Below, piece after piece: positions 8,406 to 64,000 of a stretch of 64,000 nucleotides of DNA. The stretch's first letter is position 1. Each line of letters begins with the position of its first letter. Source of the stretch: a virus. The position numbers and the translations under genes were made by a program. The stretch lies in the IMG/VR virus record IMGVR_UViG_3300009537_000005; one strand, 5' to 3'. Under the pieces are notes generated by a model, which saw only the letters and a program-made list of their open reading frames with translations, ran no database searches and had not been told where the DNA came from.

Positions 8406-8411
8406 CCTTTA

Positions 8412-8566: not shown

Positions 8567-8573
8567 CCTATAT

Positions 8574-8886: not shown

Positions 8887-8892
8887 CTTAGT

Positions 8893-9125: not shown

Positions 9126-9182
9126 CCTAGACCAATTCGGGTCTATTATCCGAGTGGTTTTCTCCTCGGAAAGGAGGATTCA

Positions 9183-11097: not shown

Positions 11098-11613
11098 ATG
11101 AGAACCGTCAGAGACATGGTGAAGAACGACGAGATGTGGACGCCGCCCGAAGCGACAAACCCATTGATACAGTATCTAGATAACAGTATGACAATTTGGG
11201 AAATGTGTCCTGGTTCTGGACAGATGGTAGATTACTTTGTAACCAGAGGCTACAATGTACTGTGGCACAGTGGGAAGGACGCTTTGCATTGGTCTCCGCC
11301 AGAGTGGTGGGACGTAGCCGTGACTAACCCACCGTGGAGCAAGAAACACTTATTCCTTGAGCGATGTATTAAGTTGGATGATCCCTTCGCATTGCTCCTA
11401 CCAGTCCGAACGCTGGGCGTACGGAGGTGTCAGATATGGCTCGATGACTGTGACTTTTTGTTTTTGCCCAAGAGAATAGATTATACAGGAGGGAACAGTC
11501 CCTATGAAGCAAGCCTTTGGGTTACTAGAAAACTATTACCAAATAGAGTTGTGTTCGCACCACCGGAGTCTATGAATGCCTATGTTCCGGCGGGCGTAAA
11601 ATTCGGGCCATGA
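11098..11613 (+). CDS. DNA N6-adenine methyltransferase (phage Dam-like)
   Basis: Motif I-like CPGSG and catalytic NPPW tetrapeptide; MWTPPE N-terminus typical of phage Dam-family MTases. Confidence 0.6.
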   Translation: MRTVRDMVKNDEMWTPPEATNPLIQYLDNSMTIWEMCPGSGQMVDYFVTRGYNVLWHSGKDALHWSPPEWWDVAVTNPPWSKKHLFLERCIKLDDPFALLLPVRTLGVRRCQIWLDDCDFLFLPKRIDYTGGNSPYEASLWVTRKLLPNRVVFAPPESMNAYVPAGVKFGP

Positions 11614-11664: not shown

Positions 11665-11697
11665 TTGACAAATTGTAAATTTGGTCCCAAAATATAG
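11665..11697 (+). promoter_or_regulatory. promoter of the TTGACAAA-N17-CAAAATATA family upstream of the primase gene
   Basis: cTTGACAaattgtaaatttgGTCCCAAAATATAgg; the -10 ends only a few nt before the GTG/ATG, so the mRNA is nearly leaderless. Confidence 0.5.
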
Positions 11698-41400: not shown

Positions 41401-44400
41401 TCAGGAGCAGTCTTCAGTCTCTTCTCCATCCTGTTCATTCTAGCCGACAATTCGTTATACCTATTGGCATTCTCTGCAACGTCGTCTGGAATTGATATCT
41501 GTGATCGCTTAACACTTCTTCTACCAAGTGGTGTGTTGACATAGATTTTGTCTTGTCCGCCCGGTGTAGTGTATGGTAAACTATCCACGCTAACGCGGAG
41601 CGGCTTGTCTCCGAATCCTGTAACCAGAACTTCACTACCTTCTCGCAGTTCGCCCCAATCTCCAGCCGGATTATTCAGCATATTAATCTCAGTCTGAAGT
41701 TCTCTCATTTGGAACTTGATGCTGTCCCGAGTCTGTCCGCCAAGAAAGATAGTAGTCTTTTCTTCTTCAAGAAGTCTAATTGTCAACGCACTGTCTGGTT
41801 CCTTTCCAGCCAGAATTCTCAACATTTCTTCCGCTCTAGCCTCAGAACCGGCCACGTCTTTGATGGCCTCGCCTAACACGTCGTCTAGAAGACCCATAGT
41901 CTCTTTCGGATCGAATGTTCCGTCCTGCGCTTGTGTGCGTATATTGTGTATGAACCGACGGACGGTTTCGGCAGTTGCTTCTAGCCCCTCTGGTTCTAGG
42001 GCCTTCGATGCCGCCTTTCGAATCATCCATGTGTCGATTAACAAGTCCTCTAGTTCGTTTGCCCCCACTCTTAAAATAGCATTGCCATTTCCGTCCATAA
42101 CCGTTCGGTGCATAGCATCTGCCAGAGAGTGCTTTCGTCGAACCCTCTCAAGCATTGGCTCAATCAGCTTGCTAATTTCTCCTGTACCTTCTGGATCAAG
42201 GACATGTTTGAACTTCTCGATCCCATCCATGTAGTGATTCATTTGCCCAAGAAAGCCTTCCCAATATTCTCGGGTGGCTTTTTCTGTATATCCTCTCCAC
42301 AAAGAATTCTTGAACATTCTATTTAAATCTGCTTTAGGAAGTTCCTCCGCAAATTCCGGAACTGGTCCCATCCAACCTCTTTGCTTGTGCCACAGGTCTA
42401 AAATGGAAATATGTTGCATTTCTGTTACTTCGTCGTTCCACTTCCAAACTTGTGTCCGGAAGTTGAGCATTGTGCGACGTACCCCAGTTTCACCGGCCAT
42501 TACCGAGTCCGCCTTCTTCTTTGATTCTTGAATTACATTGAACATGAAGTCCTTGGCTTTTCGACCCATTGACTTCGCTTCGTCAACACTTCTGGCTCCA
42601 CGCGTAAAATGATTATGTACGGCATCTCCGACCATTCTCAGTGTATCGTCTAGAGCGGCACTGGCCTCGTCAACCATTACTTGAGCAGTGTGAACTTTTC
42701 GTTCGAATAAGTCGCCCAAACGGTTACCTCGTATACCACCCATCCCCTTTTCAATGTCCGCAATCTCTTCTATATAACGTGGGTCTCGACGAATAACTCC
42801 TTCCCCAGAGGCGAGGAAGCCCCGTCCTTGATGCTGATTTACTATTTCATTTAAACGTGTGGCTTGTTCCTGCCTAGAAAGACTTGGGTTTAGCGCTTTC
42901 CGAACGGCGTCGTCAAGGTGTAGTTTCTCTAGAATGGCCAATTGACGGTCATTTAGAAATAGGAGGTTAGACAAATTGTCTACTCCCCGTGCGTCAGCAA
43001 ATTCTACAAGTGCCTTATTCACATCCCCGTAATGCTTCTTAATTAGTCGCTGTAATACCTTCACATCTCCGGGGTTTTTTACAAGCTGATCTAGTCCCTG
43101 CAACGCATATTTCGGCGTAAGAAATCTATTCATGAATCGCTTGACCGACCGAGCCATAACATGCGTACCAGCAATTACTTCGTCTTCTGATGCCTTTGTA
43201 GCGAAGTAATTGAACTTACCTTTCATCCAGTCTCCAGCATCAAACGACGCCGCCGCTCCGCCACCAATACCACGACGTTCTGCGGCTGGAGCAAAGCCAC
43301 CAAGATAATCATTCAAAGTATTTCTAGCCCACTTCCGACTCCAAGGGTTCTCGAAAAACGATTCGGCGGCGGCCTTAGGACTCACGTCCACAAAAAGCAC
43401 AGCGAAGTTACCCATTCTGTTTCTCATACGATATGCTGGGTTAAGTCCCATGAACAAAGTTCCTTGGGCTTTTCCTGCCGCTCTATACGCAGGTCGAACT
43501 TTACTGTATATCTGATGAAGCGTTTGATGTAGCTGGTTGGGTGCATTCGCCGCCCATGGTTTTGTTTCTAGAATCTTATTTGCTTTTGCCACGTCCTCGG
43601 CTTTACCAGACTTTAGCAATTCTGTGTACTTTCCATGTTCTTCAATTCGTCTTCCGATTGTAGGAAAAATATCATTTGTAATTCTCTTTAATTCGTCAGC
43701 TAGGAGTTGGTTTGTTTTCACTATGTCGCCACCGGCTTCGTCTAACAACTCCACGATCCTCTTACCGTTATTATCTCCCATTAATCTACGCCATACGTGT
43801 GCCGTTCGCTGTGCATTTTCTCCGAACAATAAGTTCTTCGGAATGTTGGTGCCCTTTATGGCATTCTGTACGTTTTCAAGCGCTTCCAATCTAGCCACGT
43901 CCTCTAGGTTGCTGTCCAATAACTTAGACAAATCATTCATAAGACGAACGGCGTCGTCTGGTCCTTCCGTCAGAGATACCAATTGGTGAATTGTATCTGA
44001 CATATTTTCTGTTAGTGTATTTTGTAAGGAATCTGCGGTTTCTGTCAGAAGTCCTCGCAGTCCTCCAAGGTCTTCGGCCCTACGAGCATCGCCAGCAATA
44101 TCATCTACAGCTCGCCGTGCTCCGTCGTTTATCCACTGTAACAATTCTGCTGTAGCCTTCTGGATTTTTCCAACGTCTCCTCCTTCTGCCGCAACGTCAA
44201 TCGCCCGCATAAGTCTTTTGCCGTCTCGGGCAACCTTAACGCCATCACCAAATGCGCCTAGATCGGCGGCGAGCGGAAGGAGTTTCTTTGCGCCAAGAGA
44301 AATTAGGTTAAGGGGATCAAATAAGAACTCTCCCATAAGTTCTTCTAGGGGGTCTTCCAATTCCATAGCCAGCAAACGGGGGTCTTCACCAGCGGCTACT

Positions 44401-45290
44401 CTCCGCAGGAATTCTTCTTTAACGGCAATGTCTTTCCATGCCGTATATCCAAGTTCGGATGCAAGCTCATTTCGATCTTTCGTAACTTCGTCTAGCGAAG
44501 TTGCGCCTGTAATTTGGTGTATAGCTTCCTTGAAGAAAACCGGAAATGCCTTGAGTGGACCTACGTATCCCCTCCATCTCTCTAGTTCTTCGTCGGTAAC
44601 TAATTTATCCTGTTGTAGAGAAGCAATTGAGTTTAGATACGCAGGACCAGTAACGTCAACTTTCCACCATCTGTCTAATTCTTGGGCTCCTAGTCCTATA
44701 AAGGAAACGAACGAACCAACTGCCCGAGGGATAACGTTAAGAACACTTAGCTTGTCGCCACCAACAGATTCGGCACCTTCCCAGCCTGCTCTAATCCCCT
44801 CGGCGGCAATACCCAATAGTGCCATGAAGGACTGTCCGTATTTCTTCCCTGCTGTGGCATTGCCGGCTTCTGCCTCAGTGTCCCAATAATCGTATACGTC
44901 CTTTACCTGGCCCAACGATGCCTTTAGGGCAGGATTATCGTCCGGCAGTTCAGTCCTGTCTTCTGTGAATTTGTAGGAGATTCGTGCCCAAATGCCCTTC
45001 AAACCGGGACCAAAATCGGGCTTTCCGTTGAACTGCCAACCACGAGCGGTTTCCGGCAGTTCTTCTCCATTCGGACCAAAAATGGCCGTCTTGTAGTCCC
45101 AATCAGTGGGCATTCCTCGATCATCGTACTCTCGCGCGACGCCGGGAAAAGGACTGTTGATAGAGTTTAATTGAGCTCGCCAATCTTCGGGACTTTCGTA
45201 ATTGTACGTGAACGATGCTTTAATCGACTCAGTTTGTGGCACCGTGCCTGCCGTTGCGCCAAATGCTCCTTTTGCTTTTCGTCTTGCCAT
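38478..45290 (-). CDS. giant 2270-aa virion-associated protein (function unknown)
   Basis: Single uninterrupted ORF between the LysM protein gene and the scaffold promoter; mixed helical and globular segments; no motif I can assign. Confidence 0.6.
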   Translation of the reverse strand: MARRKAKGAFGATAGTVPQTESIKASFTYNYESPEDWRAQLNSINSPFPGVAREYDDRGMPTDWDYKTAIFGPNGEELPETARGWQFNGKPDFGPGLKGIWARISYKFTEDRTELPDDNPALKASLGQVKDVYDYWDTEAEAGNATAGKKYGQSFMALLGIAAEGIRAGWEGAESVGGDKLSVLNVIPRAVGSFVSFIGLGAQELDRWWKVDVTGPAYLNSIASLQQDKLVTDEELERWRGYVGPLKAFPVFFKEAIHQITGATSLDEVTKDRNELASELGYTAWKDIAVKEEFLRRVAAGEDPRLLAMELEDPLEELMGEFLFDPLNLISLGAKKLLPLAADLGAFGDGVKVARDGKRLMRAIDVAAEGGDVGKIQKATAELLQWINDGARRAVDDIAGDARRAEDLGGLRGLLTETADSLQNTLTENMSDTIHQLVSLTEGPDDAVRLMNDLSKLLDSNLEDVARLEALENVQNAIKGTNIPKNLLFGENAQRTAHVWRRLMGDNNGKRIVELLDEAGGDIVKTNQLLADELKRITNDIFPTIGRRIEEHGKYTELLKSGKAEDVAKANKILETKPWAANAPNQLHQTLHQIYSKVRPAYRAAGKAQGTLFMGLNPAYRMRNRMGNFAVLFVDVSPKAAAESFFENPWSRKWARNTLNDYLGGFAPAAERRGIGGGAAASFDAGDWMKGKFNYFATKASEDEVIAGTHVMARSVKRFMNRFLTPKYALQGLDQLVKNPGDVKVLQRLIKKHYGDVNKALVEFADARGVDNLSNLLFLNDRQLAILEKLHLDDAVRKALNPSLSRQEQATRLNEIVNQHQGRGFLASGEGVIRRDPRYIEEIADIEKGMGGIRGNRLGDLFERKVHTAQVMVDEASAALDDTLRMVGDAVHNHFTRGARSVDEAKSMGRKAKDFMFNVIQESKKKADSVMAGETGVRRTMLNFRTQVWKWNDEVTEMQHISILDLWHKQRGWMGPVPEFAEELPKADLNRMFKNSLWRGYTEKATREYWEGFLGQMNHYMDGIEKFKHVLDPEGTGEISKLIEPMLERVRRKHSLADAMHRTVMDGNGNAILRVGANELEDLLIDTWMIRKAASKALEPEGLEATAETVRRFIHNIRTQAQDGTFDPKETMGLLDDVLGEAIKDVAGSEARAEEMLRILAGKEPDSALTIRLLEEEKTTIFLGGQTRDSIKFQMRELQTEINMLNNPAGDWGELREGSEVLVTGFGDKPLRVSVDSLPYTTPGGQDKIYVNTPLGRRSVKRSQISIPDDVAENANRYNELSARMNRMEKRLKTAPEQLEEVRQAEIAEIDRRIKAIQDGLDVEQTAIRSAIAERYVKVNEADLPQSMQDEFFFTEDIYRIDLGDGDYALFQPQFKTNKGMGWRPGKFVVPEAQRGRGVGTKFMDEMKKLSDEFKLEMGIQPDTKDLHRFYDQIDGLIIDEAEGGRRYLYTPRTDPPERFSTPIIAAMDDATPTVARSDYATFPQVKKSIDEVLAHLNTLDDSPQLSPHRAAYSNEEWARLREGASGIQEKINEVRTMAGQVAVKERDFALHNYGKRYGFDMVAGLIFPYQFWYSRSYAKWMKRMVQTPAILTHYLQYRRFLEKKHAGLPDWWKYQMNTNDLFGLDAENPLYFNLEAMINPLHGLTNVDFTDPQRRKDWWGGAMEDIQKMGPSVWTPFTYGLAAYYSLQGEEEAAARWAGRLLPQSKAIRDITALVDPQGLGIEIDPAVHLWGGGDPLAFTGSKVGVEAYERGRVGRQLGLMVNEGKWTEAEIIEAAYRQEGEIWDVARARAIHDRASHWGLIAGQFMFGVGAKPRPEGDIQIDTMYKEMRNLIAHRPDVSEENYAKGWNMLREAYPFLDTILLAKKGGLERDEALAWNVLNRIPPGMSFEMAKVANMDYDTITQFRSNKGDLSELSEAQRLDFMGGVMQLGALLDVPPDATRRDWDRASQEYSDMMAHGEKVFGEDIWQKVDLYYASFDESNQDAMRNFLKANPIVQEALDFKQMTINGSPSLMTYYGSVEKLEKFYKGQFYQTVEQVFGDNIWDKWSVYHELKDMGETKAANKYFKDNPELKGYLVMRDEMLPIIDQKVLELGDTIEERQGPFFRGEENVIDPNVEIQSFNVDEQQRWISDQVMSYAQGQSANNRTQADVVDHIRAQADSLWPSTKQSARRYYKIVNSNPNGAASMLQENAELETRVRWEFDRILRIALAREGELEASAARYQSELEQMGVQGQSPTAFENLAPGPLKRLLNDPDGLPPHLWELLGGR

Positions 45291-51969: not shown

Positions 51970-53161
51970 CTAATAGCGCCGTCGTTTCTTCAAAGTCCTC
52001 CAGCCAATTCGTTCGGATAACAAAATCTATCAAATGTTTATTTCCTTGTTGAACAAATGACTTATACGGCAAATCTTCCCACGTACCAACCAGATTTTCT
52101 TCGACCGGGTCTTCTCCAAGCGGTTCTCCTCTGGCTTGTGCTTCCTCTTTACTCGGGCTGGCATATCCATACGTCATGTAGCCATGGTAATTTTCTAGTC
52201 TTCCAGGCATAACGTTCTGTGCATAAGCAATAAACGTATCTTGAGGGAAATAAACCTCAATTCCATGCGCCGCGCATTGTCCTAACCACCATTCCATACC
52301 CGGTCGTTGTTGAAAATATTCTGTTTCTACCTGCTCTAGTTCGCACCCATAAATTTCAATACGTTCCCAATCCTTCACACCAGTTAATTTTTCATAAATT
52401 ACCAATGCAAGCATATAACTGAATGTCGAAGCGAAATACTGGTGTACATAACCAGCGCCTCGTGGTAATTTATCACCAATCAAAAGCTCACAGACCTCTC
52501 TCAAAGGAAATTTTACACTATTCGGAACGTCCGCAAAGTGCCTCTGCATGTAAATTTGAGGTACTTTGCTCTCTTGTAGCCATTTCCAATGGTCTTCTGC
52601 GTATCGAGTTCGTCGTCTAGTGAATCTCCAGCGATGGTGAAGCTGGAACCAGCGATCAAATAACGATATTTTTTCTTTAAAGATGACAGCGGAGTCATTC
52701 AAACCCCACCATTCGTCGATGCCAGTCTCGTTCCATGGTGCCAAAGGTCCACTTCGGCTGTGTGTACCCATCATCACAACAGTTTTCTTGTCCTTTCGTT
52801 GTTTCATTCGTTCTCGAATTGTGATCGGATGTGCCCTAGCAACGTAATCATATGCCATTTTCTTTTCTCTCGATGACGAGGGGCGCTCTGTCGACGGTAT
52901 GTTGAAGTTTGCTTCGCCGTCTTCGTTCACAGTAAGCGCCGTATGATTGTTGCACATCGGACAATTTATCGGATGAGTTCCAACCGGCATCATCGGGATA
53001 CTTACATTGAAGTTAAGTTCATCTCCACGAACCGGTGCCATTGGATTTGCTTGTCCATGCGCGCTTCTTTTGTGATTTCGTAGCGCCGCCACAGACCCAA
53101 ACTCCTTTTCGCATAGTGGACATTTCTTCTTTTGTTTTCTAGGTCTATTTCTTTTCGTCAT
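51929..53161 (-). CDS. hypothetical protein with an N-terminal C2H2-type zinc finger
   Basis: CPLCEKEFGSVAALRNHKRSAH. Confidence 0.4.
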   Translation of the reverse strand: MTKRNRPRKQKKKCPLCEKEFGSVAALRNHKRSAHGQANPMAPVRGDELNFNVSIPMMPVGTHPINCPMCNNHTALTVNEDGEANFNIPSTERPSSSREKKMAYDYVARAHPITIRERMKQRKDKKTVVMMGTHSRSGPLAPWNETGIDEWWGLNDSAVIFKEKISLFDRWFQLHHRWRFTRRRTRYAEDHWKWLQESKVPQIYMQRHFADVPNSVKFPLREVCELLIGDKLPRGAGYVHQYFASTFSYMLALVIYEKLTGVKDWERIEIYGCELEQVETEYFQQRPGMEWWLGQCAAHGIEVYFPQDTFIAYAQNVMPGRLENYHGYMTYGYASPSKEEAQARGEPLGEDPVEENLVGTWEDLPYKSFVQQGNKHLIDFVIRTNWLEDFEETTALLDELMEQENGKYNK

Positions 53162-53913
53162 TAGAATGCCGTCACTGGGGCAATGGGCCCGAACTTTCTC
53201 GATGGTAGTCTACGACGAAGTGATAGAAAGATTCCATTCTTGTAAAATATCGACCAGTCCTCGTTTTCGTGGATGATCTTATTCACGCCGTGAAATACAT
53301 CTGGATAGCCTTCTTCGTAGTTGTCGAAACCGATATAATCTGATGTCCGCTTGCTTACATTCTCGAAGTCTTTATACGGCATATCTCGCATATGATCGCC
53401 ATCAATGTAAGCAGTAACAAAATTATTTTCTTCCAATTCTTCCGGCCATGGATCGGAGTACTTCTGAATTAAATTTAACTTCACGTCAAACAGCTTGGCG
53501 TTCTTTCTCAACTCCTCTGGGGTAGCGACAAGCAGACTTTGATCTTCTTTTGGTTGACCGGTAGTGGGGTCTATAATTCTAATGTCCTCCTCCCTTTTTT
53601 CAGCGTCGTACGGATCAATACAATATACTTCTCCTTCTAATCCCAACTTTCGTTTTACAAGAGCCACGGCGATGGCGCTTGCTCCAAACAAAGTCCCAAT
53701 CTCTACGTGGTCTCCGTCGCCGGCGTTGGCAACCATGCTCATCAGGAAAACCAAACTCGCTCCGCCATCGGCAATTCTGCCTGTAAATTCCTTATCTTTC
53801 ATGCTCTGATTAAGTTCTTGCATAACTTTAAATACTTCTGGGTAAATCCTCATTACTTGGCCTCCGGTAATTTCGCCGCGCCTTGGGCGACAGCAATTTC
53901 TGCCAATTCCCAC
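53161..53913 (-). CDS. class I SAM-dependent methyltransferase (TylF/MycF-like O-methyltransferase)
   Basis: GDGDHVEIGTLFGASA Rossmann SAM-binding segment and YIDGDH metal/substrate motif. Confidence 0.45.
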   Translation of the reverse strand: MGIGRNCCRPRRGEITGGQVMRIYPEVFKVMQELNQSMKDKEFTGRIADGGASLVFLMSMVANAGDGDHVEIGTLFGASAIAVALVKRKLGLEGEVYCIDPYDAEKREEDIRIIDPTTGQPKEDQSLLVATPEELRKNAKLFDVKLNLIQKYSDPWPEELEENNFVTAYIDGDHMRDMPYKDFENVSKRTSDYIGFDNYEEGYPDVFHGVNKIIHENEDWSIFYKNGIFLSLRRRLPSRKFGPIAPVTAF

Positions 53914-54599
53914 TCTTCACGGGTATTGATGTCGAACCCTTCCCATTCGTCCACAACAAACGGAACGATGATTGATCCAGCTATGCTCCGTGTTTCGTAA
54001 ACGGTTTTCGTTCTGGCAAATTCCATACCAGCAGTTTGGACGTAGACATCAAACAGAGATTGAGTTGGTGAACTGTGCCACGGTTGAAATTCTGGCCCCA
54101 TAGGAAACAAGGGCAATAGTAGATTGTCTCGAATAACCCACATCTTGCCTGGGTGTTCTGATGCTCGTCGTACAGTTCTTAAAGAATCCGCCTCTTGGCG
54201 AAAATAGAATTCTGACGCTGCCGCCGAAATTAGACTTGCGCTTCGGAATGGACTTGTTACTCTTAAAATAGCAAATACATCTGCTGGATCGCCATCTTCA
54301 TCAAGTTTTTGTAGCGCCCACTGTACCCATTCGATATCCGGCGAATTGTCCTGTACTGTGTAATTTGGACGTTTCCACGGAACTGATGCTCCGTAGTCCT
54401 TGGCTATTTCGGCGTGCACGTCGCTCTTCACAACCGCTATAACTCGATCAAAAACACCACTGTTGATGGCCGCTCGAATTGTGTACGCCATAAGCGGATG
54501 TCCAGCCAAAAGTGCCTGTTCTTTATCCAGTCCGTCAATTAGACCTACTCTACTCCCACCTGCCCGAAGTGGAATAAACGCTACCGTATTTGTTCGCAT
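53853..54599 (-). CDS. cytidylyltransferase of the CMP-nonulosonic acid synthetase (NeuA/CMP-Kdo synthetase) family
   Basis: N-terminal AFIPLRAGGSRVGL (compare NeuA IPARGGSKGL) and FDRVIAVVKSD. Confidence 0.55.
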   Translation of the reverse strand: MRTNTVAFIPLRAGGSRVGLIDGLDKEQALLAGHPLMAYTIRAAINSGVFDRVIAVVKSDVHAEIAKDYGASVPWKRPNYTVQDNSPDIEWVQWALQKLDEDGDPADVFAILRVTSPFRSASLISAAASEFYFRQEADSLRTVRRASEHPGKMWVIRDNLLLPLFPMGPEFQPWHSSPTQSLFDVYVQTAGMEFARTKTVYETRSIAGSIIVPFVVDEWEGFDINTREEWELAEIAVAQGAAKLPEAK

Positions 54600-55591
54600 T
54601 GAAGTAATTCTCCTTTTTTCACGTCTCTATCCAACCGATGACGCACAAATTTTGCTACATTTAACTTGGTTGGATACAAACCCCCCGGTTTCATGGGAGA
54701 CTGTATCGCTATATGATATTCTTTTATTTTCGTTCCTTTTTTCAAATCCCTTCCCCAATAGAGACTATGTGCCATTTTTTGAATCGGCGCAATTTCGGAC
54801 TTCATTGGTTGGTCTCGCCATTCTAACGCCCTGGCTGTGCGGTTTAGGTACTTAACGTACTGTTGGAGCCCGAAAAACTCCAAAGAGAACCTGTGGTCGG
54901 TTCCTTTTGCGTTGTGATCCAAGGTTATGTGCTTTTCAAAGACTCTGGCTCCAAGAGCATATGCCGCCGCCCCAAGCTCAATCCCATCCTGGTGGTCTGA
55001 CAAACCAATTGGAATGTACGGGAATGTTTCCTGAAGAACCGAAATCCTTCGAAGATTCATCATATCAGGTGGACAGGGATACGCTGCTACGCAGTGGAGG
55101 ATTGTTAGAGGATAATCCACAGGAAAAAGCGATACAGTTCTTATTATCGAATTTACAGACTGTCCTCCTACTGACATAATTGTCGGTTTGCCTGTTTTTA
55201 CAATTTCGCAAACTAAAAGATGATTTGTAACGTGGGCCGACGCGATTTTGTACTTACTAACATCTAATTTCTCTAAAAACTTTACGGATGGAATATCAAA
55301 CGGAGTAACGAAAAATTCTAGACCTTTTGATTCCGCGTATTGCTTTAGGGTCTCAAATTCGCTGGTTCCGAACTCTAGGGCTTCTCTGTGAGCCCCATAA
55401 GTCGGTCCGTAGCCATCATATGGCCTATTAAACATTTCGTCCGTATATAAACTTCGATTGTCCCGCTTTTGAAATTTTACGGCGTCTGTACCAGCTAGAT
55501 GTGCCATATCAATCAGCTTGTGAGCATCTTGAAGACTGCCATTGTGATTACCGCCAATTTCTGCTATGATGTAGGGGCTATTGTTGTCCAT
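54581..55591 (-). CDS. NeuB-family nonulosonic acid synthase (sialic/pseudaminic/legionaminic acid synthase)
   Basis: YIIAEIGGNHNGSLQDAHKLIDMAHLAGTDAVKFQKR is the classic NeuB signature; C-terminal SAF-like segment. Confidence 0.8.
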   Translation of the reverse strand: MDNNSPYIIAEIGGNHNGSLQDAHKLIDMAHLAGTDAVKFQKRDNRSLYTDEMFNRPYDGYGPTYGAHREALEFGTSEFETLKQYAESKGLEFFVTPFDIPSVKFLEKLDVSKYKIASAHVTNHLLVCEIVKTGKPTIMSVGGQSVNSIIRTVSLFPVDYPLTILHCVAAYPCPPDMMNLRRISVLQETFPYIPIGLSDHQDGIELGAAAYALGARVFEKHITLDHNAKGTDHRFSLEFFGLQQYVKYLNRTARALEWRDQPMKSEIAPIQKMAHSLYWGRDLKKGTKIKEYHIAIQSPMKPGGLYPTKLNVAKFVRHRLDRDVKKGELLQCEQIR

Positions 55592-55802
55592 AAAGTATTA
55601 ATCCTAGTATTCCTAGTACTACAAGAGAAGTTATTGATACAGCAATCCACGCTAAAAATAACTCCACATAGGTATCGCCAAAATAATCGTCTGGCTGTCC
55701 GTCGTTGTCTTTGTCTTGCCAAGGCCACTTCACTATAAACCTCCTGTTGAAAATCCACCGTCGCCGTTCCATAGTGATGTAGTAGTAAGAACGCCGTTCC
55801 AT
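55578..55802 (-). CDS. small membrane protein
   Basis: ORF track; one TM helix. Confidence 0.3.
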   Translation of the reverse strand: MERRSYYYITMERRRWIFNRRFIVKWPWQDKDNDGQPDDYFGDTYVELFLAWIAVSITSLVVLGILGLILYGQQ

Positions 55803-55984
55803 GGTGATGTAGTAGGGAAAACCAAACCACCCGACCGAAAGTCTGGTGTACCGTTGGAACTGGCGACATATTTCGATAGTTCTGGCAGTCTACTTGCCGG
55901 TAGTCCCGCTCCACATCCCGAACATTGCAACTGGGTTTCCCCGTCGTTCGCCTGGTTGCAATATTCACATTTTATTCTTCTCAT
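55733..55984 (-). CDS. small zinc-ribbon protein
   Basis: CEYC...CSGC. Confidence 0.3.
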   Translation of the reverse strand: MRRIKCEYCNQANDGETQLQCSGCGAGLPASRLPELSKYVASSNGTPDFRSGGLVFPTTSPWNGVLTTTSLWNGDGGFSTGGL

Positions 55985-56130
55985 AATTTATTCCCCTTTC
56001 CATTCAAAGGTTGTAACATATAGAATTCCTACGAAGCATTTGAATATAGAAAATCCAAATGATCGTGCATCTTTCCACTCTGTCGGTTCATTCCACGTAA
56101 AAGCAATTGGTAAAGTGGGAAACGGTTGAA

Positions 56131-56904
56131 TTACCATGCGCAGTAACCTCCGTCGATCAAAACCTGCTGGCCAGCAAACTCTGGACACTCTATTGCGAAT
56201 CTGAGGGCGGCTCGCCAACTTTGTTCGCTAATTGCTCTACCCAACGGAACGTTTTTAAAAAACTTTTCTTTGAATTCATCGGGAAGTCCCTTATCCAGCG
56301 GTCCGAAAGCAATGGTAACGGACCGAATATTGTGGCTTCCGTACTGTACGGTAATTGACCTTGATAATTGAATAAGTGCCGCTTTCGAGAGGTTGTAGGC
56401 AACTGGTTTTTCAAATCCCTCGTCATAGTTCCTCCAATCGGCACCAATGTTACCCATGATGCTACCAATGTTGATTATTACTCCTCCTCCGATGGCCTTC
56501 ATCCCCGGAATAAATGCCTTTGCGACATTAGCCGACCCGACAAGGTTCACATTGAGTATTTTTTCCATGTCTCCGAAAAAAGTGGCTCCAGAGCCGGGTG
56601 GATTGTCAATCGCCGCGTTGTTAACCACAACAGATGGTATTATGCCCTCTTCAAACAAATCGGCGGCATAGGCTCGCAACAAATCGGGGTTTGTTACATC
56701 ATATAGAGGCAAATCATAGCTAAAGACCTCATAACCCATCCGTGTTAGTTCGTCTATCCAGATTGGCCCCACCCGTCCGCTTCCGCCCGTTACTACTGCG
56801 TACTTCACGTACGTCGGTGGGGATGCCAATGAGGCCAAGCTTCTTTCCCAGTCAAAGTTAAAGTATTCTCCTACTTTCCAGTTGACCATTGTGTCTTGTT
56901 TCAT
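56131..56904 (-). CDS. short-chain dehydrogenase/reductase (SDR)
   Basis: TGGSGRVG Rossmann motif, NNAA, catalytic YNLSK (YxxxK). Confidence 0.7.
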   Translation of the reverse strand: MKQDTMVNWKVGEYFNFDWERSLASLASPPTYVKYAVVTGGSGRVGPIWIDELTRMGYEVFSYDLPLYDVTNPDLLRAYAADLFEEGIIPSVVVNNAAIDNPPGSGATFFGDMEKILNVNLVGSANVAKAFIPGMKAIGGGVIINIGSIMGNIGADWRNYDEGFEKPVAYNLSKAALIQLSRSITVQYGSHNIRSVTIAFGPLDKGLPDEFKEKFFKNVPLGRAISEQSWRAALRFAIECPEFAGQQVLIDGGYCAW

Positions 56905-58166
56905 GCCGATATCCTCACATACGTTGGTTCGCTTTTCTTTAACGCTGTTTTGAGGGTCGTATATATTTCATCAGGCGCTGGTTGGATTACATCCATTAAA
57001 TTTCCGATATACTCGGCGTCGTCAAGGCTTTGATGACTGATACCCGGCCCGGATGGGTCTAGAGGCCCCGCCATAGTTCCAATGTACACTACAGCTGTTC
57101 CTTCAGTAAGCTGGTTGTAAATTTGTTCGAATGCCCGGCGAATGAAACAAGCATAGGTAGCAAAAATCGGCTTTTGTCCCATCAAGGCGCGGGCCGAGGC
57201 AAAGGAGACTGCGTTTTGCTCCGCAATACCAAAGTCAAATACTCTATCAGGAAATTTTTCGCGAAGGTCGTATAAATGGAGGTCTCGCGCAGTATCGGCC
57301 GTAACCAAAATAACATCCTCATCGTTTTCCATAATCTTCTTGACCGATAGGCCCAGGGCTTTCATCTTTGAATTTTCTGGAAGCTCCGCTCCGGGCGCTC
57401 CGAAATGTGATTCTACTGTTCCTTCAAATTCCGTTCCCTTTCCTTTTGTTGTTATAAGAACAACCAGCCACGGGCCGCTCTCGCGATGCTCCTCTACCGT
57501 ATCTAAAATAAGATTAATCTCATCTAGGTCGTTTCCGTTCTCTGTACCTGCTACACTCCATCCAGCACCAACAAACATTTTTACAATTCGGTCTGTTGTG
57601 AGTTCAGTGGGCCCGTCTTGACTGAATTGGTTATAGTCGACGATAGCAACAATATTATTGACTTCATAATTTGCTGCCGCCAAGGCCGCCTCCCAATTCT
57701 GTCCCTCCATCATCTCCCCGTCGCCTAGAAGGACGTAAACCATTCTATCTTGGTCGAGGGCAAATCCAAGGGCTTTGGAAAGCCCCATTCCCAACGAACC
57801 GGTATTCGCCTCGATTCCGGGTATGTCCACGGTGGGATGACCGGGCAGGCCACCGTTGTTTCTGAAAGTATCCAACCGTCCCACATCAAGAATCCCACTC
57901 TCGGCCAGTACGGCATACTGTGCCAATGCGTCGTGTCCTTTTGAGGAGATAAATATGTCATCTTCATCCATCCTGTCCCTGATCGCTACGATAGCATCCA
58001 GCGACGATAAGGACGTTCCTAGGTGCCCCTTGCCCGCTTTCTCGACGATTTCAATAATTCGGGCTCGTAGCCGCTCGATCATTTCTTTACGTTCTTCTTT
58101 AGTGCCGCTAAGTGCTTCGTCGTCTTTTGTACTGTCGGGTGTGTCTTCTTTTCTTTTATAGGGCAT
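56901..58166 (-). CDS. transketolase-like thiamine-diphosphate enzyme (TPP-binding and Pyr domains in one 421-aa chain)
   Basis: GH...GSLGMGLS TPP-binding region and FGIAEQNAVSFASA pyrimidine-binding region. Confidence 0.65.
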   Translation of the reverse strand: MPYKRKEDTPDSTKDDEALSGTKEERKEMIERLRARIIEIVEKAGKGHLGTSLSSLDAIVAIRDRMDEDDIFISSKGHDALAQYAVLAESGILDVGRLDTFRNNGGLPGHPTVDIPGIEANTGSLGMGLSKALGFALDQDRMVYVLLGDGEMMEGQNWEAALAAANYEVNNIVAIVDYNQFSQDGPTELTTDRIVKMFVGAGWSVAGTENGNDLDEINLILDTVEEHRESGPWLVVLITTKGKGTEFEGTVESHFGAPGAELPENSKMKALGLSVKKIMENDEDVILVTADTARDLHLYDLREKFPDRVFDFGIAEQNAVSFASARALMGQKPIFATYACFIRRAFEQIYNQLTEGTAVVYIGTMAGPLDPSGPGISHQSLDDAEYIGNLMDVIQPAPDEIYTTLKTALKKSEPTYVRISA

Positions 58167-58737: not shown

Positions 58738-58939
58738 AGGTCTTCTCGTATAAATATGCCGTTACAATCGCCATGAGGCCGTGCTATAACGTCCGGCGGT
58801 GTGATGTCGAGCGGTACTTCCAATTCCCACTGGGCGTCACAAAACTGGCAATCATAGGTATAAATCCAGGTTCCGTCCAATTAAGTTCTCCTGCTTAATT
58901 TACTCTAGGTTAAGTGAAAAGGCTTAACTCCCCTTCACC

Positions 58940-58972
58940 TATATATTGGGACCAAAACCTCGTTTTGTCAAC
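58940..58972 (-). promoter_or_regulatory. minus-strand promoter of the TTGACAAA family (sugar-cluster operon)
   Basis: Reverse complement reads ggggTTGACAaaacgaggttttgGTCCCAATATATAggtg. Confidence 0.55.
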
Positions 58973-59039
58973 CCCCAAATTCCTAGGTGATGCCTAATTT
59001 ATACCAAGGTGAATTAAAAAGTACTCTCCGCAACTTTTG

Positions 59040-59440
59040 ACGGGTAACGCGGGAATAAGGAGAGATGTAGACCTACTAGGGGGGTACCCTTCCAACCGAC
59101 CTAGGACGCAAATTCTGTGTGTGTGTACAAGCATAATAGCCCCACGGGGTGTATGGGAGTGGGGGTAGAGTACCGCTATATGTGGGGGATAGGGGTGAAA
59201 ATGGGCTAACCGGGCGGGGGTGGGGCGGATTCAGCACGTAGAACAAAGAAGAATCACGTAGGAGAAGGAGGAATCACGTAGGGATCGGTACAGTAGGGGG
59301 TCTAAGAACGATTCTAAGGGGTAGTTATGGGGTCTGTGTATGGTGGAAAGCCAATTCGCACCCCGCATGCTGTTAGGATGATAGTGGGGGGAATCAAAAC
59401 ACCCCATCCAGTTAGTAGAATGGGGTGTTTATGGGGGATC
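59040..59440. repeat. G-tract-rich noncoding island (C-rich on the transcribed minus strand)
   Basis: At least 12 runs of G4-G6 on the + strand within 400 nt; GT dinucleotide repeat; direct repeat GAATCACGTAGG x2 (59253, 59273); no ORF on either strand. Confidence 0.6.
59397..59435 (-). terminator. intrinsic terminator of the minus-strand gene 59448-60119
   Basis: ACACCCCA-N14-TGGGGTGT hairpin, followed on the minus strand by TTTTGATT. Confidence 0.5.
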
Positions 59441-59447
59441 GTGTGGA

Positions 59448-60119
59448 CTAAGCTAAACCTTGTATCCACCTAACTACGAACAGCACGCTAGACCACAAGG
59501 TCATGGGATACTCTTTAGTCAACTGAACGTCTCCATAGGGTTGTATCACCAAGGGGCGAAGATATCCGCCGTTGACCCTAGGGGTGGGGAGAGCAGGATC
59601 ACCGTCTAACAACGTTGGCACGTTGGTATTCGCACGGGGTCTAAACTCCCATGGCTTACCAGTAGGGCGACGTCCACTTTGAATAAGGACATCTAGCTCA
59701 CGCTCCAAGTCGTCATGAGCTAGATTGACCAGGTAACTTTCGTGCACAGCAAGTAGACTTGTGATCTTGTGATAGTTATCCATTATCTTATCCCCCTTAT
59801 CACGTAGGTCCTTAGCTTGCCGAATACTCGGTAAGTACACGTACTTTTTACCATGACGTTGGGCGTACTCTCTCTCACGTCGTCGTTGTCTAGCACTTTC
59901 CCTTTGTTCTTCGGTTTGCCTTGCGCGATACTCACGCATATATGCCGCTCGTTTGTCCTTATCTTCTCGTGTCTTATCAGACTTTTCATGCTTTCGTTTA
60001 GGTTCAGGTTCAGTATGTTTTACAATCCCCGTCCTTGCGCCCATGGCAGTAGTGGATTGCAATTCTATTGCCTTGCGCAATATCCTATTTTGTAGCTTAC
60101 GCTTTACTTTCGTACTCAT
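59448..60119 (-). CDS. hypothetical basic protein (R/K/E-rich)
   Basis: ORF track. Confidence 0.45.
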   Translation of the reverse strand: MSTKVKRKLQNRILRKAIELQSTTAMGARTGIVKHTEPEPKRKHEKSDKTREDKDKRAAYMREYRARQTEEQRESARQRRREREYAQRHGKKYVYLPSIRQAKDLRDKGDKIMDNYHKITSLLAVHESYLVNLAHDDLERELDVLIQSGRRPTGKPWEFRPRANTNVPTLLDGDPALPTPRVNGGYLRPLVIQPYGDVQLTKEYPMTLWSSVLFVVRWIQGLA

Positions 60120-60266
60120 TACCTATCCTTTCATTGCAATGTCAGTCTACTCAACTGCACATAAATTGTATCACAGGTGTCAAATTACTCTAGGGATTTT
60201 AGGACTGTGTGGACAATCTGCTCTGCTATATAAAGGAAAGCTCAAAACAGCACGTATGAATGGTCT

Positions 60267-60300
60267 TTGACTCAGACGTCGTAAAAATGGTAAACTATAT
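60267..60300 (+). promoter_or_regulatory. promoter/operator repeat copy 1 (TTGACT-N18-TAAACT)
   Basis: TTGACTcagacgtcgtaaaaatggTAAACTatat, a degenerate copy of the CACGTCGTAAACGTG palindrome. Confidence 0.5.
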
Positions 60301-60360
60301 CGTAAGGATCAGTCGGTTGATTGCCTGATCCTTACAATCAAATAAGAAAGGACGTCGATA

Positions 60361-60624
60361 ATGGCAACCTTTGACTTTGACAACGGATATCAAACAAACA
60401 CAGGAAAGCAGTCAACTAAACGTAGACGAATAAAAACAAACCGAGTGTATGGTGCACCATGTGATTGTTTTGACCTAGGTCTAACCTGTCCACATACTAC
60501 AAAGGAAAAAACAACCAACATACCAGACTCGATTGTTCTAGACAGTACGGACAAACGTCCAGATTGGCAAAAACACTTTGTGGTCGAAAGGAGTCAGAAC
60601 ACACAACGTTATAAGGCAGGATAG
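60361..60624 (+). CDS. hypothetical small protein
   Basis: ORF track; downstream of promoter copy 1. Confidence 0.4.
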   Translation: MATFDFDNGYQTNTGKQSTKRRRIKTNRVYGAPCDCFDLGLTCPHTTKEKTTNIPDSIVLDSTDKRPDWQKHFVVERSQNTQRYKAG

Positions 60625-60661
60625 GCCAACGAAAAAGCAGTACAGATGAAGTAACGTTTAC

Positions 60662-60696
60662 TTGACTCGCACGTCGTAAACGTGGTAAACTAGATT
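60662..60696 (+). promoter_or_regulatory. promoter/operator repeat copy 2
   Basis: TTGACTcgCACGTcgtaaACGTGgTAAACTagatt. Confidence 0.55.
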
Positions 60697-60781
60697 GTAG
60701 GGCAGTGCGGATTGCAATTGACTACGGTCGATTGCAGTGCGGGCGACCCTACGCTCAAATACAATTTGAAAGGATGATACA

Positions 60782-61006
60782 ATGGCAACAAACGTGGTAC
60801 AGAGTCGCGAAGACGCTCAGTTAAAGGCGTCAAAGCGAATCAATACAGCACTAGACAAGTTTAGACAAATTGGTAACACGGTCAATTGGGCCTTGACTAC
60901 CGAGGATCGACTTGCCATGGCAGATGCAATAGAGCAAGGGGCGGTCGAACTGGTCGAAAAACTGCGCGGTTCGAGCGCTAGTGGATCAACCGAATTTTCG
61001 TTCTAA
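60782..61006 (+). CDS. hypothetical small protein
   Basis: ORF track. Confidence 0.4.
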   Translation: MATNVVQSREDAQLKASKRINTALDKFRQIGNTVNWALTTEDRLAMADAIEQGAVELVEKLRGSSASGSTEFSF

Positions 61007-61105
61007 GATGTAGTGTTTCACAAGGCGACTAACTGGGTCAAAATCTAACACATCGCCGTAGTTAGTCGCCGTAGAAACCCAACATCACATTATAAGGGAG
61101 TTGAA

Positions 61106-61345
61106 ATGGTGACAATACTTGACTTAGATAGACGCGATCCTCTGGTAGTGTCCAGCACAATCTGGCAAGGAAGTGAACGTGTGGATATTCGGACCCACTA
61201 CTATGCGAAAGAATCCGACGAACTAAGCCCTACCAAGAAGGGAGTCAGCCTCAAGATCGACGAAGTACCAATTGTAGTACAGGCTGTTCTTGACGCCTAC
61301 AACCAAATGACGGGACAAAATCTAAGCTTGACTCACACGTCGTAA
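61106..61345 (+). CDS. hypothetical small protein
   Basis: ORF track; SD AAGGGAG. Confidence 0.4.
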   Translation: MVTILDLDRRDPLVVSSTIWQGSERVDIRTHYYAKESDELSPTKKGVSLKIDEVPIVVQAVLDAYNQMTGQNLSLTHTS

Positions 61346-61362
61346 ACGTGGTAAACTATATT
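61328..61362 (+). promoter_or_regulatory. promoter/operator repeat copy 3
   Basis: TTGACTcaCACGTcgtaaACGTGgTAAACTatatt. Confidence 0.55.
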
Positions 61363-61648
61363 GAAGGGAGACGACATGATTACAGTACTACCAAGAAACC
61401 AAGATGGCACGCTATCCAGCTTCGCATGGCCGGGGGGATATCGACTCTGGTATTATGGATGGGAAAACGACGAATGGGTAACACTTTGCCCCGAGTGTGC
61501 AAATGATTACAGTCGAGACACCGAGCGAATGGAGACCTTCGAATTTGACTGCGCTTATCCAGTGTGGGAGGGCGACCCAACTTTATGCGACGAATGTCAA
61601 GCCGAGTATCCGAGCGAATATGGTAATCCATACGCACCAGAGGACTAG
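61361..61648 (+). CDS. hypothetical Cys-rich protein (CPEC...CDEC)
   Basis: ORF track; zinc-ribbon-like Cys pairs. Confidence 0.4.
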   Translation: MKGDDMITVLPRNQDGTLSSFAWPGGYRLWYYGWENDEWVTLCPECANDYSRDTERMETFEFDCAYPVWEGDPTLCDECQAEYPSEYGNPYAPED

Positions 61649-61775
61649 ACATGAATCCCCCACCAATCGACCGGCTTGTATACGGAGTCATTTCGTGGTA
61701 TAAGATGGGGGAGATTTTAGTCGTGATGATAGGACTATGTTGTCTACTATCACAGTGGGCAATCTTGGAGGGTGA

Positions 61776-62009
61776 ATGATGCACCACAAAATGTCTGTAA
61801 AGGTCAACCTACGAAATCATCTAATTCGAACTGCGAAAGACAATGCGAAAGCACGAGGACATATATTAGGAACGTTTGACCTATACGGATTAAACCGTGC
61901 CTATGCAAACTGTCTTTGCTGTAATTGTTGGATACAGATAAATACAAACCCTTCGGTAAATGAAATTGACATTGCCGGAACTGCTATAGCTTTGCAATGC
62001 GAGGAGTAA
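61776..62009 (+). CDS. hypothetical small protein
   Basis: ORF track. Confidence 0.35.
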   Translation: MMHHKMSVKVNLRNHLIRTAKDNAKARGHILGTFDLYGLNRAYANCLCCNCWIQINTNPSVNEIDIAGTAIALQCEE

Positions 62010-62012
62010 ACG

Positions 62013-62348
62013 ATGTGCGATTGCACCCCCGATAGCGGACTGCCTAATTGTCTTTGTAGGAATTGTGGAGAACCTTCTTTCTCCCTTGATAACTATCCAT
62101 GGGGCGACTGGACCGCGCGTGATTGGTCCGAACCTCAAGAATTATCCAACTGGACGATTGATGACGAGGGGAGGGAGATAATTCCCACGGCAAGTATAAA
62201 ATATAACGAGAAGGGACTTTCACTTTCAAGTCTATGGCAAGGTAGGAACATAGTCGCATGTTGGGACAACGAGGGCAACCAATTCAGTCTACATCACGCC
62301 TATAGTCTTATGTTTGACCTAGCACGCAACCTAGGATTGTTTGACTGA
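62013..62348 (+). CDS. hypothetical Cys-rich protein
   Basis: ORF track. Confidence 0.4.
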   Translation: MCDCTPDSGLPNCLCRNCGEPSFSLDNYPWGDWTARDWSEPQELSNWTIDDEGREIIPTASIKYNEKGLSLSSLWQGRNIVACWDNEGNQFSLHHAYSLMFDLARNLGLFD

Positions 62349-62349
62349 C

Positions 62350-62384
62350 TTGACTCGCACGTCGTAAACGTGGTAAACTAGATT
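62350..62384 (+). promoter_or_regulatory. promoter/operator repeat copy 4
   Basis: TTGACTcgCACGTcgtaaACGTGgTAAACTagatt; additional TTGACT at 62341. Confidence 0.55.
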
Positions 62385-62398
62385 ATGGAGACAACAAA

Positions 62399-62584
62399 AT
62401 GGAACACTTAGAATTACAAATTACATTCGTTGCCAAATGTGAAAAAGACATGGAACATTTACGGGAAATTTTATACGAGCTAAAATGGTTTATAGTGGGC
62501 TGTAACATTGACGACGAAAATGAAGGTATTAAGTTTTTGGGGTTTACTGAAAACGAATGGTATGCAGATAGTCCGTTCGAATAA
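62399..62584 (+). CDS. hypothetical small protein
   Basis: ORF track. Confidence 0.35.
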   Translation: MEHLELQITFVAKCEKDMEHLREILYELKWFIVGCNIDDENEGIKFLGFTENEWYADSPFE

Positions 62585-62595
62585 CCCCAACAAAT

Positions 62596-62668
62596 GTCCT
62601 CTTAGTCTAGAGGTCTAGGACACCGACTTCTCAGGTCGGGAACGTAGGTTCGAATCCTACAGAGGACA
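62596..62668 (+). tRNA. tRNA-Glu (CTC), isolated copy
   Basis: GTCCTCT-TA-GTCTAGAGGTCTAGGAC D-arm closely resembles bacterial tRNA-Glu; anticodon arm CCGAC-TTCTCAG-GTCGG; T-arm GTAGG-TTCGAAT-CCTAC. Confidence 0.65.
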
Positions 62669-62783
62669 CCTAGCCGTCCCGTCGGCCAGTGGCCCTACGC
62701 TGGCAGAAGTAGGCAGAAGCTAAATACCCAGTCAACCACGGGAGAAGACTGGTTTCTTCTCACTACGTCTGAAAGGAAAGAAC

Positions 62784-63857
62784 ATGAAGCTCAAGAAACA
62801 CGAAATAGTCGAATGCAAATCAAACACTGACGTAACAACACTATCACAAGTAGGAAGAGACGAAATTAGGAGGTTCTTGGGTATTGCTACCACCGGACGT
62901 TTTTGTTTTGGTAGGTGTTGTCCCATGCCGTTTAGTTGGTCTATAGAACAAAATGCAGACGACATACAACAAGGGTACCGAGGAAAGCTAACAACTAGAA
63001 TCTCTGCCTACGTATTTAAAACCACCGGTATGTCTTTATCTCCCCCGGAAAAACAACACATCGGTAACATTATCTATCAACATACAATACAGCCAGAAAA
63101 CTACCTGTTGAAAATGGACGACAACATCATAGGAATGGAAGAAGACAGGTTTGGGGACGGAGGGTCATGTTTCTATGGTGACAACGAGGGAGCGAGAGAA
63201 TTAATGCAAGATAATGGATTCCTCGTGGCGAAAATATACACAGAAGATGGGCATCCCAAAGCACGGGCATGGGCATACGAGCTCGCAAATCACGGTCTTA
63301 TACTGTTCAATGGGTACGGATTTGATGGCAAGTCTACGATTGAACACGCCAAAATAATATCATCCGTACTAGACGAACCGTATTCAAATGTAGAACTATG
63401 GAATTATGGTCAACGCTCTGGCCTTTTGTACCTAAATAACGGATCGGGTTATTTAGTAGGAGAATCAGACCTAACAGAATTCGACTTTCGCATAGACGAG
63501 GAGCCATATCAAAGAGGAGAAAGGTGTTATAGCTGCGGCGAGAGGGGCGCTTCATATTGGCATTGGGTAGATTATGAACAATACTGTGACCCGTGCTACG
63601 AAGACAACTTCTATGAGTGTAGCCAATGTGATGAGCCTGTTTCTATAGAATATGCCGAAAGGATCAACAATGGTGCATACCACCTTGAGTGCGCCTATGA
63701 TAAAGGATACACAAGATGTGAAAGTTGTGATGACTGGGCTTATAGACCAAGCGGACGGTATGATGATGATGGATACGAGATTCCCGTGTGTAATAGTTGT
63801 TCTCCTGATTTTAACACCTTAGAAGACTTGGAAGAGAAAGGAATACAACCCAGATGA
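62784..63857 (+). CDS. hypothetical 357-aa Cys-rich protein (multiple CxxC zinc-ribbon motifs)
   Basis: ORF track; SD GAAAGGAAAG; CYSCGERG, CDPC, CSQCDEP, CESCDDW, CNSC. Confidence 0.45.
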   Translation: MKLKKHEIVECKSNTDVTTLSQVGRDEIRRFLGIATTGRFCFGRCCPMPFSWSIEQNADDIQQGYRGKLTTRISAYVFKTTGMSLSPPEKQHIGNIIYQHTIQPENYLLKMDDNIIGMEEDRFGDGGSCFYGDNEGARELMQDNGFLVAKIYTEDGHPKARAWAYELANHGLILFNGYGFDGKSTIEHAKIISSVLDEPYSNVELWNYGQRSGLLYLNNGSGYLVGESDLTEFDFRIDEEPYQRGERCYSCGERGASYWHWVDYEQYCDPCYEDNFYECSQCDEPVSIEYAERINNGAYHLECAYDKGYTRCESCDDWAYRPSGRYDDDGYEIPVCNSCSPDFNTLEDLEEKGIQPR

Positions 63858-64000
63858 ACATAAAACAGCTTCAGCACAGATGTCACCAAAAAATTAAAGA
63901 CTTCCATGATTTAGGCGAAGTGAATCACCCCGTGGGAGGAGAATACATCTACATAGACAGAGGCACGAACATTTTGGGAGTCGCTCATTTGGACACATGG

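Follow-up and report, generated by a model that had tools for sequence, protein, structure and literature searches.

Repeated early promoters in a tailed phage: probable recent copying of a sigma-70-type cassette and a spacer dyad that is most likely incidental

The virulent phages T7 (promoters A1–A3), T5 and SPO1 carry clustered early promoters that are read by the host RNA polymerase (RNAP). In other phages an operator overlaps the spacer or the core of a promoter, as at P22 Pant, which is bound by Arc, and at the OR and OL regions of lambda-type phages. The early promoters of N4 contain a DNA hairpin, with a 5–7-bp stem and a 3-nt loop, that is read by a virion RNAP. In Cluster A mycobacteriophages, repressor sites called stoperators, which are asymmetric 13-mers, are present in many copies throughout the genome (PMC9283540). 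PeSLs (promoter-early stem-loops), described in the T4-like phages RB49, phi1, PST and nt-1, are repeated sigma-70-like early promoters that precede ORFans in hyperplastic regions; they mostly have a stem-loop that falls between the −35 box and the −10 box and mediate modular shuffling (Arbiol et al. 2010, PMC2839356; Comeau et al. 2014, PMC4122927). Here we describe four copies of a promoter in IMG/VR virus record IMGVR_UViG_3300009537_000005. Three of them carry a dyad, CACGT-N5-ACGTG, between the −35 box and the −10 box. The window analyzed is 64 kb of a 69,284-bp JGI contig.

As judged from the sequence, the four elements are probably early promoter cassettes of the host sigma-70/sigma-A type that were copied recently within the genome, with the dyad being incidental. 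Similar to PeSLs, they are conserved sigma-70-like early promoters repeated directly before small ORFan genes, the early region in which they lie is hyperplastic, their spacer contains an inverted repeat, and differences in gene content between related phages start and stop at the repeats. Unlike PeSLs, they number four and not about 50, and their stem is short, is not GC-rich and displays neither excess stability nor terminator features. Furthermore, unlike the carriers of PeSLs, the phage is not T4-like (its terminase and capsid matches are remote and it has no close match in INPHARED or IMG/VR). The match to PeSLs is functional and not one of membership. As in T7, T5 and SPO1, several predicted strong promoters for the primary sigma factor lie at the leading end, before small early genes, but while the promoters in those sets resemble each other mainly in their hexamers, three of the copies described here share the entire spacer and the start region.

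Four copies of one promoter

The 30-mer TTGACTCGCACGTCGTAAACGTGGTAAACT is found in identical copies at 60662–60691 and 62350–62379 (pattern search of the 64-kb window). A third copy, at 61328–61357, has one mismatch, CG to CA; the preliminary description of this DNA had CG here. The first copy, TTGACTCAGACGTCGTAAAAATGGTAAACT, at 60267–60296, is degenerate: it fits TTGACT-N18-TAAACT and matches the 30-mer at 26–27 of 30 positions. The repeat reported in the preliminary description is real, with zero matches to the 30-mer expected by chance (100 shuffles). The four copies constitute a single 42-nt repeat family that extends from −36 to about +6 with 81–100% identity (repeat search), and the sequences flanking this block are unrelated among the copies. 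The four promoters are called W1 to W4 below, and the first two genes behind them g1 and g2; ORF stands for open reading frame.

60267–60296, + strand: W1, degenerate first copy that has lost the dyad, located in the divergent intergenic region and predicted to drive g1
60662–60691, + strand: W2, dyad at 60670–60684, predicted to drive g2 and a PC4-like ORF; orthologue of promoter R3 of a related phage (see below)
61328–61357, + strand: W3, one mismatch, dyad at 61336–61350, predicted to drive the ORFs from 61376 to 62348
62350–62379, + strand: W4, same sequence as W2, dyad at 62358–62372, predicted to drive a 61-aa ORF, a tRNA-Glu and a 357-aa ORF

W2, W3 and W4 agree at 29–30 of 30 positions (97–100%). 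W3 overlaps the end of the PC4-like ORF, for which it supplies the last six codons and the TAA stop. W1 is located at the switch from a leftward gene block (23263–60119) to a rightward one (60361 onward; another rightward block spans 1–22827), and W2–W4 follow within the next 2.1 kb. The window contains no additional copy of the 30-mer or of the dyad, and the 10-mer core does not occur in a promoter-like setting outside the four copies.

In all four copies the −35 box is TTGACT (five of six positions of TTGACA) and the −10 box is TAAACT, which matches the consensus at four of six positions, among them the second (A) and the sixth (T). The boxes had been called near consensus, which is correct for the −35 box and not for the −10 box. 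The latter is extended by a TGn element: each copy has an 18-nt spacer that ends in TGG directly 5′ of the −10 box. A promoter scan gave every copy 9 of 12 hexamer matches plus the TG before the −10 box. A ribosome-binding site (RBS) and an ATG follow on the + strand at a distance of 12–85 nt from the −10 end (gene starts at 60361, 60782, 61376 and 62399). The hexamers, the spacer, the placement and the conservation at orthologous sites all agree with the earlier assignment of a promoter with an 18-nt spacer, and this reading of the copies is well supported. Transcripts would be expected to start about 6–8 nt past the −10 box, in the conserved A(G/T)AT(T/C)G. Host RNAP with a sigma-70/sigma-A-type factor would read all four copies, which head four successive units of small ORFan genes that open the rightward, presumably early, block.

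The dyad of W2–W4 consists of two 5-bp arms, CACGT and ACGTG, around a 5-nt center, CGTAA. The preliminary description presented it as a perfect 15-bp palindrome present in all four units. In fact, only the arms match and the center is asymmetric, and W1 (GACGT...AAATG) has no dyad, its longest inverted repeat being 2 bp, which leaves three units. All three differences between W1 and W3 are in the arms. The half-sites are 10 bp apart center to center, or about one helical turn. The final GTG of the right arm is part of the −16/extended −10 element that is kept by all five promoters with an 18-nt spacer found in this work. Furthermore, ACGT is its own reverse complement, and a direct ACGT...ACGT repeat is therefore automatically an inverted one. 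Inverted repeats with 5-bp arms arise by chance in ~3% of 20-mers of the window (~17% for 4-bp arms), so the statistical weight rests on the repeated 30-mer and not on the dyad. As RNA, the dyad stem has a predicted energy of −4.8 kcal/mol (z −0.3), and 70 of 200 shuffled sequences are equally stable; as DNA its stability does not exceed that of shuffles either (z −1.6). There is no U-tract 3′ of the stem (GGUAAACUAGAUU), and a terminator scan made no call there. The dyad is most likely largely a by-product.

Orthologous promoters and the boundaries of gene cassettes

Relatives were found only by protein homology searches, after which the contigs encoding the matches were examined. The most informative locus, L002, is on a 73.7-kb ENA contig (ERZ25746546 NODE_8) and was found via the homologue of a 223-aa ORF that is divergent from g1; L003 is an identical Logan contig. 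L004 is a phage fragment that carries g1. L001 encodes a distant homologue of the 357-aa ORF, and its promoter is an ordinary TTGACA-17-TAGACT with an unrelated spacer. Motif scans of IMG/VR and JGI metagenome contigs gave no matches (the source contig was not recovered either), and searches anchored on the 357-aa ORF, the g1 alignment and a 410-aa alignment found no relatives in viral, metagenome and genome collections. Window proteins looked up as exact matches in a contig index had no entry there. Leftward, L002 is syntenic with the window (genes for a transketolase-like protein, a short-chain dehydrogenase, NeuB, a methyltransferase, a zf-C2H2 protein and terminase); rightward, it contains orthologues of g1 and g2 only. 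The promoters of L002 (R1–R3) and L004 (S1–S3) are:

R1 (L002): −35 TTGACT, spacer CCTATGTCGTGCTGATA, −10 TACCAT
R2, same as S2 (L002 and L004): −35 TTGACT, spacer CCTATGTCGTGCTAGGA, −10 TACAAT, start region agatta
R3 (L002): −35 TTGACA, spacer ACATGCCCGTAAACATGA, −10 TACAAT, start region agatta
S1 (L004): −35 TTGACT, spacer AGCGCGTCGTGCTGACA, −10 TACAAT
S3 (L004): poor −35, −10 TACAAT, start region agattag

A candidate additional copy in L002 at about 4380 was ruled out, being intragenic and having no −35 box. The conserved parts across the lineage are TTGAC(T/A), TAC(A/C)AT in the relatives and a start region of the form A(G)ATTAG-AGGA, whereas the spacers differ. RTGn is present exactly in the promoters with an 18-nt spacer (W1–W4 and R3); those with a 17-nt spacer have the better −10 box TACAAT and no TGn. 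L002 itself has two unrelated types of early-promoter spacer.

The comparison of W2 with its orthologue R3, both of which are upstream of g2, shows how much of the spacer is retained between the two phages. The spacers agree at 9 of 18 positions and the complete elements at 18 of 30 (60%), no more than the 63–65% DNA identity found for g1 and g2 on either side. In R3, none of the dyad's five arm pairs is retained in register, and only a CATG-N8-CATG repeat with 4-bp arms and another spacing remains. The R2/S2 spacer contains a 5-bp-arm dyad of its own, TCCTA-N8-TAGGA, which is not present in R1; the stems of both R2 and R3 are weaker than that of the window dyad. Since paralogous copies (29–30 of 30) are far closer to each other than orthologous ones (18 of 30), the copying or conversion within the genome must be recent. 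Recent copying explains the identity of the spacers in W2–W4, and this identity is therefore not evidence of constraint.

The boundaries of gene-content differences coincide with the promoters. When L004 is aligned with L002, g1, promoter 2 and the sequence as far as TACAATAGATTA have an estimated identity of ~88%; homology then ends, and it returns exactly at GATACAATAGATTAG in promoter 3, at the −10 box. The ORFs in between (71 and 61 aa) are unrelated and gave no BLASTP alignment. In the window, there is no gene between g1 and g2, and L002 lacks counterparts of the window genes at 61106–63857, though both flanks are syntenic. As judged from these boundaries, the promoter copies are joints for the exchange of ORFan cassettes. 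A promoter cassette of about 36–42 nt would have been copied recently within the genome, presumably by recombination, and its copies would double as short patches of homology at which ORFan cassettes come, go and swap.

Surrounding genes and a second promoter class

The features of the early region, in order, are:

59448–60119, − strand: 223-aa basic ORF, divergent from g1, with a homologue of 49% identity in L002
60302–60335, + strand: stable stem-loop (z −3.0), 5′-terminal in the predicted W1 transcript
60361–60624, + strand: g1, first early gene, an 87-aa basic protein with a CxC..CxH motif, 49–53% identity in L002 and L004
60696–60753, + strand: very stable stem-loop, 5′-terminal in the predicted W2 transcript; the 93-nt 5′ untranslated region holding it has −40 kcal/mol, z −7.9
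60782–61006, + strand: g2, 74 aa, no Cys, 66% identity to its L002 orthologue
61106–61345, + strand: PC4-like ORF of single-stranded DNA-binding type (Pfam PF02229, 3e-10, transcriptional coactivator p15 fold), no Cys, no L002 orthologue
61376–62348, + strand: W3 unit of four ORFs (90, 42, 77 and 111 aa), several of them Cys-rich or zinc-ribbon-like
62399–63857, + strand: W4 unit with a 61-aa ORF, tRNA-Glu(CTC) at 62596–62670 and a 357-aa Cys-rich ORF

Several of these genes are small and Cys-rich, as had been described for the set as a whole, but g2 and the PC4-like ORF contain no cysteines. The AlphaFold2 model of g2 (pLDDT 68) is a helical hairpin of two long helices; it has no N-terminal strand and no fold match in the Protein Data Bank (PDB), and g2 as a ribbon-helix-helix (RHH) protein was ruled out on these grounds. 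The PC4-like ORF gave no match to PDB sequences. The ORFs of the W3 unit have no family match in Pfam or PHROGs and no L002 orthologue. The model of the 223-aa ORF (pLDDT 55) is uninformative as to a repressor role. In the divergent intergenic region, GTCAAATTACTCTAG at 60179–60193 is conserved in L002, and beside it, on the minus strand, is TGTGATACAAT, an element that resembles an extended −10 box; the leftward 223-aa gene probably has its promoter or control region here. A further stem-loop, at 61024–61070 between g2 and the PC4-like ORF, has a z of −4.8 and no U-tract. The three stem-loops at 60302–60335, 60696–60753 and 61024–61070 may be 5′ mRNA stabilizers or processing sites. An Rfam scan of 59500–64000 found tRNA only.

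The window represents a tailed-phage genome with genes for terminase, major head protein, DNA polymerase, helicase/primase and a Ro-like RNA-binding protein, and with 27 tRNAs. Of the tRNA genes, 26 form an array at 4479–9127, and the CTC anticodon of the lone tRNA-Glu in the W4 unit is also found there, at 7046–7119. No near-identical DNA was found in the phage collection. The terminase matches unclassified Caudoviricetes and Agrobacterium phage OLIVR only remotely (23–25% identity), and the PHROG matches of the window proteins are generic. The phage is novel and probably virulent.

A second class of promoter-like elements (class II), cTTGACAAA-N13-tG(A/G)TCCCAA(A/T/G)ATATA, has five members in the window. 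A TTTGGG...CCCAAA inverted repeat often flanks these elements.

4366–4397 (+), 11665–11696 (+), 38266–38235 (−), 51709–51678 (−), 58971–58940 (−): class II promoters of the window
about 3546–3602 (+), 11182–11231 (+), 18640–18689 (+), about 3577–3521 (−): class II promoters of L002

These sites precede the tRNA array and the replication, structural and packaging genes, and are conserved nearly base for base in L002. They may be middle or late promoters that are read with a phage factor. One of them precedes a gene in L002 (2549–3472, − strand) for a 307-aa sigma-70-family protein (Sigma70_r3, 28.3 bits; Sigma70_r4, 27.9 bits; both above Pfam cut-offs), of which tblastn found no homologue in the 64-kb window; the phage may have it in the remaining 5.3 kb of the contig or lack it.

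Other parts of the window are also of note. A region of ~570 nt (58880–59448), which has the 223-aa ORF on one side and a class II promoter on the other, is poor in ORFs and C-rich on the transcribed (−) strand; patches of it are conserved in L002, e.g. ACACACACA..GTCGGTTG and TAGTAGGT, and the part of it scanned with Rfam gave no match. A non-coding RNA or an origin could be located there. The minus-strand genes at 53161–58166 code for NeuB (6.9e-64), a cytidylyltransferase-like protein, a short-chain dehydrogenase, a transketolase-like protein and a methyltransferase; the cluster is conserved in L002 with 59–75% identity, and its composition suggests synthesis of a nonulosonic or sialic-acid-type sugar. 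Near the left end, GAGATCAAGCGAAGGAGGGAGAAGTGA is repeated three times at intervals of ~210 nt (759–794, 968–1003 and 1185–1220). It codes for the C-terminus EIKRRREK*, which is shared, and supplies the next small gene with its RBS and an overlapping GTG start, i.e. it is a repeated gene-junction cassette. The virion block includes a 2270-aa ORF (38478–45290, − strand), for which Pfam, PHROGs and PDB sequences gave no match, N4- and crAss-type virion RNAPs included; a DLGDGD stretch that was noticed in it by eye is no DxDxD motif. An adjoining 617-aa ORF has an N-terminal LysM/transglycosylase-like domain. The two ORFs may encode ejection or internal virion proteins.

Possible roles of the spacer dyad

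The preliminary description interpreted the dyad as an operator overlapping a promoter, at which a dimeric repressor of the phage or the host would block RNAP and shut all units at once; with W1 exempt or weakly bound, this could apply to W2–W4. The geometry stands: as in known promoter-overlapping operators, the half-sites are about one turn apart on the RNAP-binding region, in the classic position for occlusion, and like the sites of Arc, lambda and the stoperators, the dyad is a short sequence repeated at phage promoters. The spacer is identical in three copies, the differences of W1 from W3 are confined to the arms, as expected if W1 escaped control, and the dyads of the window and of R2 (the latter absent from R1) amount to two in ~5–7 independent spacers, more than the chance rate would give. 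Against this, the dyad is not kept in register at R3, the two unrelated spacers of L002 are beyond the reach of one repressor, the extended −10 element by itself explains three right-arm bases, and recent copying accounts for the identity of W2–W4. Unlike known operators, the dyad is missing from one of four promoters, and, unlike genome-wide stoperators, it is found nowhere in the window except inside the promoter copies (a search of the full genome for the palindrome had been proposed). The proposed search for a helix-turn-helix (HTH) repressor gene was equally negative: no HTH, RHH, MerR or Cro/CI-type protein was detected among the ~60 window ORFs (Pfam, PHROGs), most of which have no assigned function, or among 10 early ORFs of L002, and neither the model of g2 nor the low-confidence model of the 223-aa ORF gave a DNA-binding fold. 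An operator shared by W2–W4 therefore appears rather unlikely.

The dyad could instead act in RNA, in the manner of a PeSL, with the stem-loop CACGU-CGUAA-ACGUG attenuating or terminating read-through, or marking a processing or 3′-stabilizing site, and so insulating the units from each other. The stem-loop of PeSLs in RB49 and phi1, which is mostly in the same position, is a terminator or attenuator (PMC2839356), and the distribution of the dyads fits such a role: they are found at the internal promoters W2–W4 and R2/S2 and are missing from the first ones, W1 and R1, and a first promoter, having no upstream transcription on its strand, would need no stem. A 5-bp stem with the energies given above, no U-tract and no terminator call, and with still weaker counterparts in R2 and R3, makes this role very doubtful. 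The element might also be read by an apparatus of the phage instead of the host primary sigma factor, be it an N4-like virion RNAP acting on a promoter hairpin, a sigma factor of the phage or an activator of the MerR kind bound to the spacer dyad. As in N4, an inverted repeat is present in repeated early promoters at a genome end and there is a giant ORF in the virion block; the L002 phage encodes the sigma-70-family protein, and the 18-nt spacer exceeds the optimum by one base. MerR promoters have spacers of 19–20 bp, and no MerR gene was detected among the window ORFs. Unlike the N4 hairpin, the one here has a loop of 5 nt, is no more stable than shuffled sequence, does not occur in W1 or the relatives and is accompanied by canonical sigma-70/sigma-A hexamers, including the extended −10, while the 2270-aa ORF displays no detectable homology to a virion RNAP. 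The class II promoters (TTGACAAA...GGTCCCAAnATATA), which are more idiosyncratic and better conserved, are a likelier target of a phage sigma factor. Reading of the element by a phage apparatus is thus extremely improbable.

Several points count against copied cassettes with an incidental dyad. Dyads with 5-bp arms are found in two independent promoter types (W2–W4 and R2/S2) as compared with the ~3% expected by chance, and their location at internal and not at first promoters in both phages is a hint that a spacer dyad may have some function at internal promoters. Of 10 promoters from three phages, 8 share (C/T)GTCGT in the center of the spacer, which exceeds what a free spacer would predict. 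The independent relatives number only two, and additional copies or a regulator may be located in the other 5.3 kb of the contig. Recent copying, moreover, would be compatible with a dyad that is also functional. Each phage could have its own internal-promoter dyad (CACGT-N5-ACGTG here, TCCTA-N8-TAGGA in L002 and L004) that is read by a fast-evolving early protein missed by present profiles. One candidate is g1, the conserved basic protein with the CxC..CxH motif, which would be made from the first, exempt promoter. We consider this improbable; if true, the ORFan units would be shut off or timed by a minimal feed-forward switch, and operator specificity would co-diverge from one phage to the next.

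The recent copying of host-type early promoter cassettes nevertheless remains the probable explanation of the four elements. With the relatives compared, the main argument for an operator, namely that spacer identity implies constraint, falls away. The analysis also provides an early-region transcription map, with four units, their likely starts and a second promoter class, for a lineage that has no cultured or catalogued relatives. Finally, it extends the PeSL idea beyond T4-like myoviruses: here, too, promoter cassettes appear to double as joints for the exchange of ORFans.

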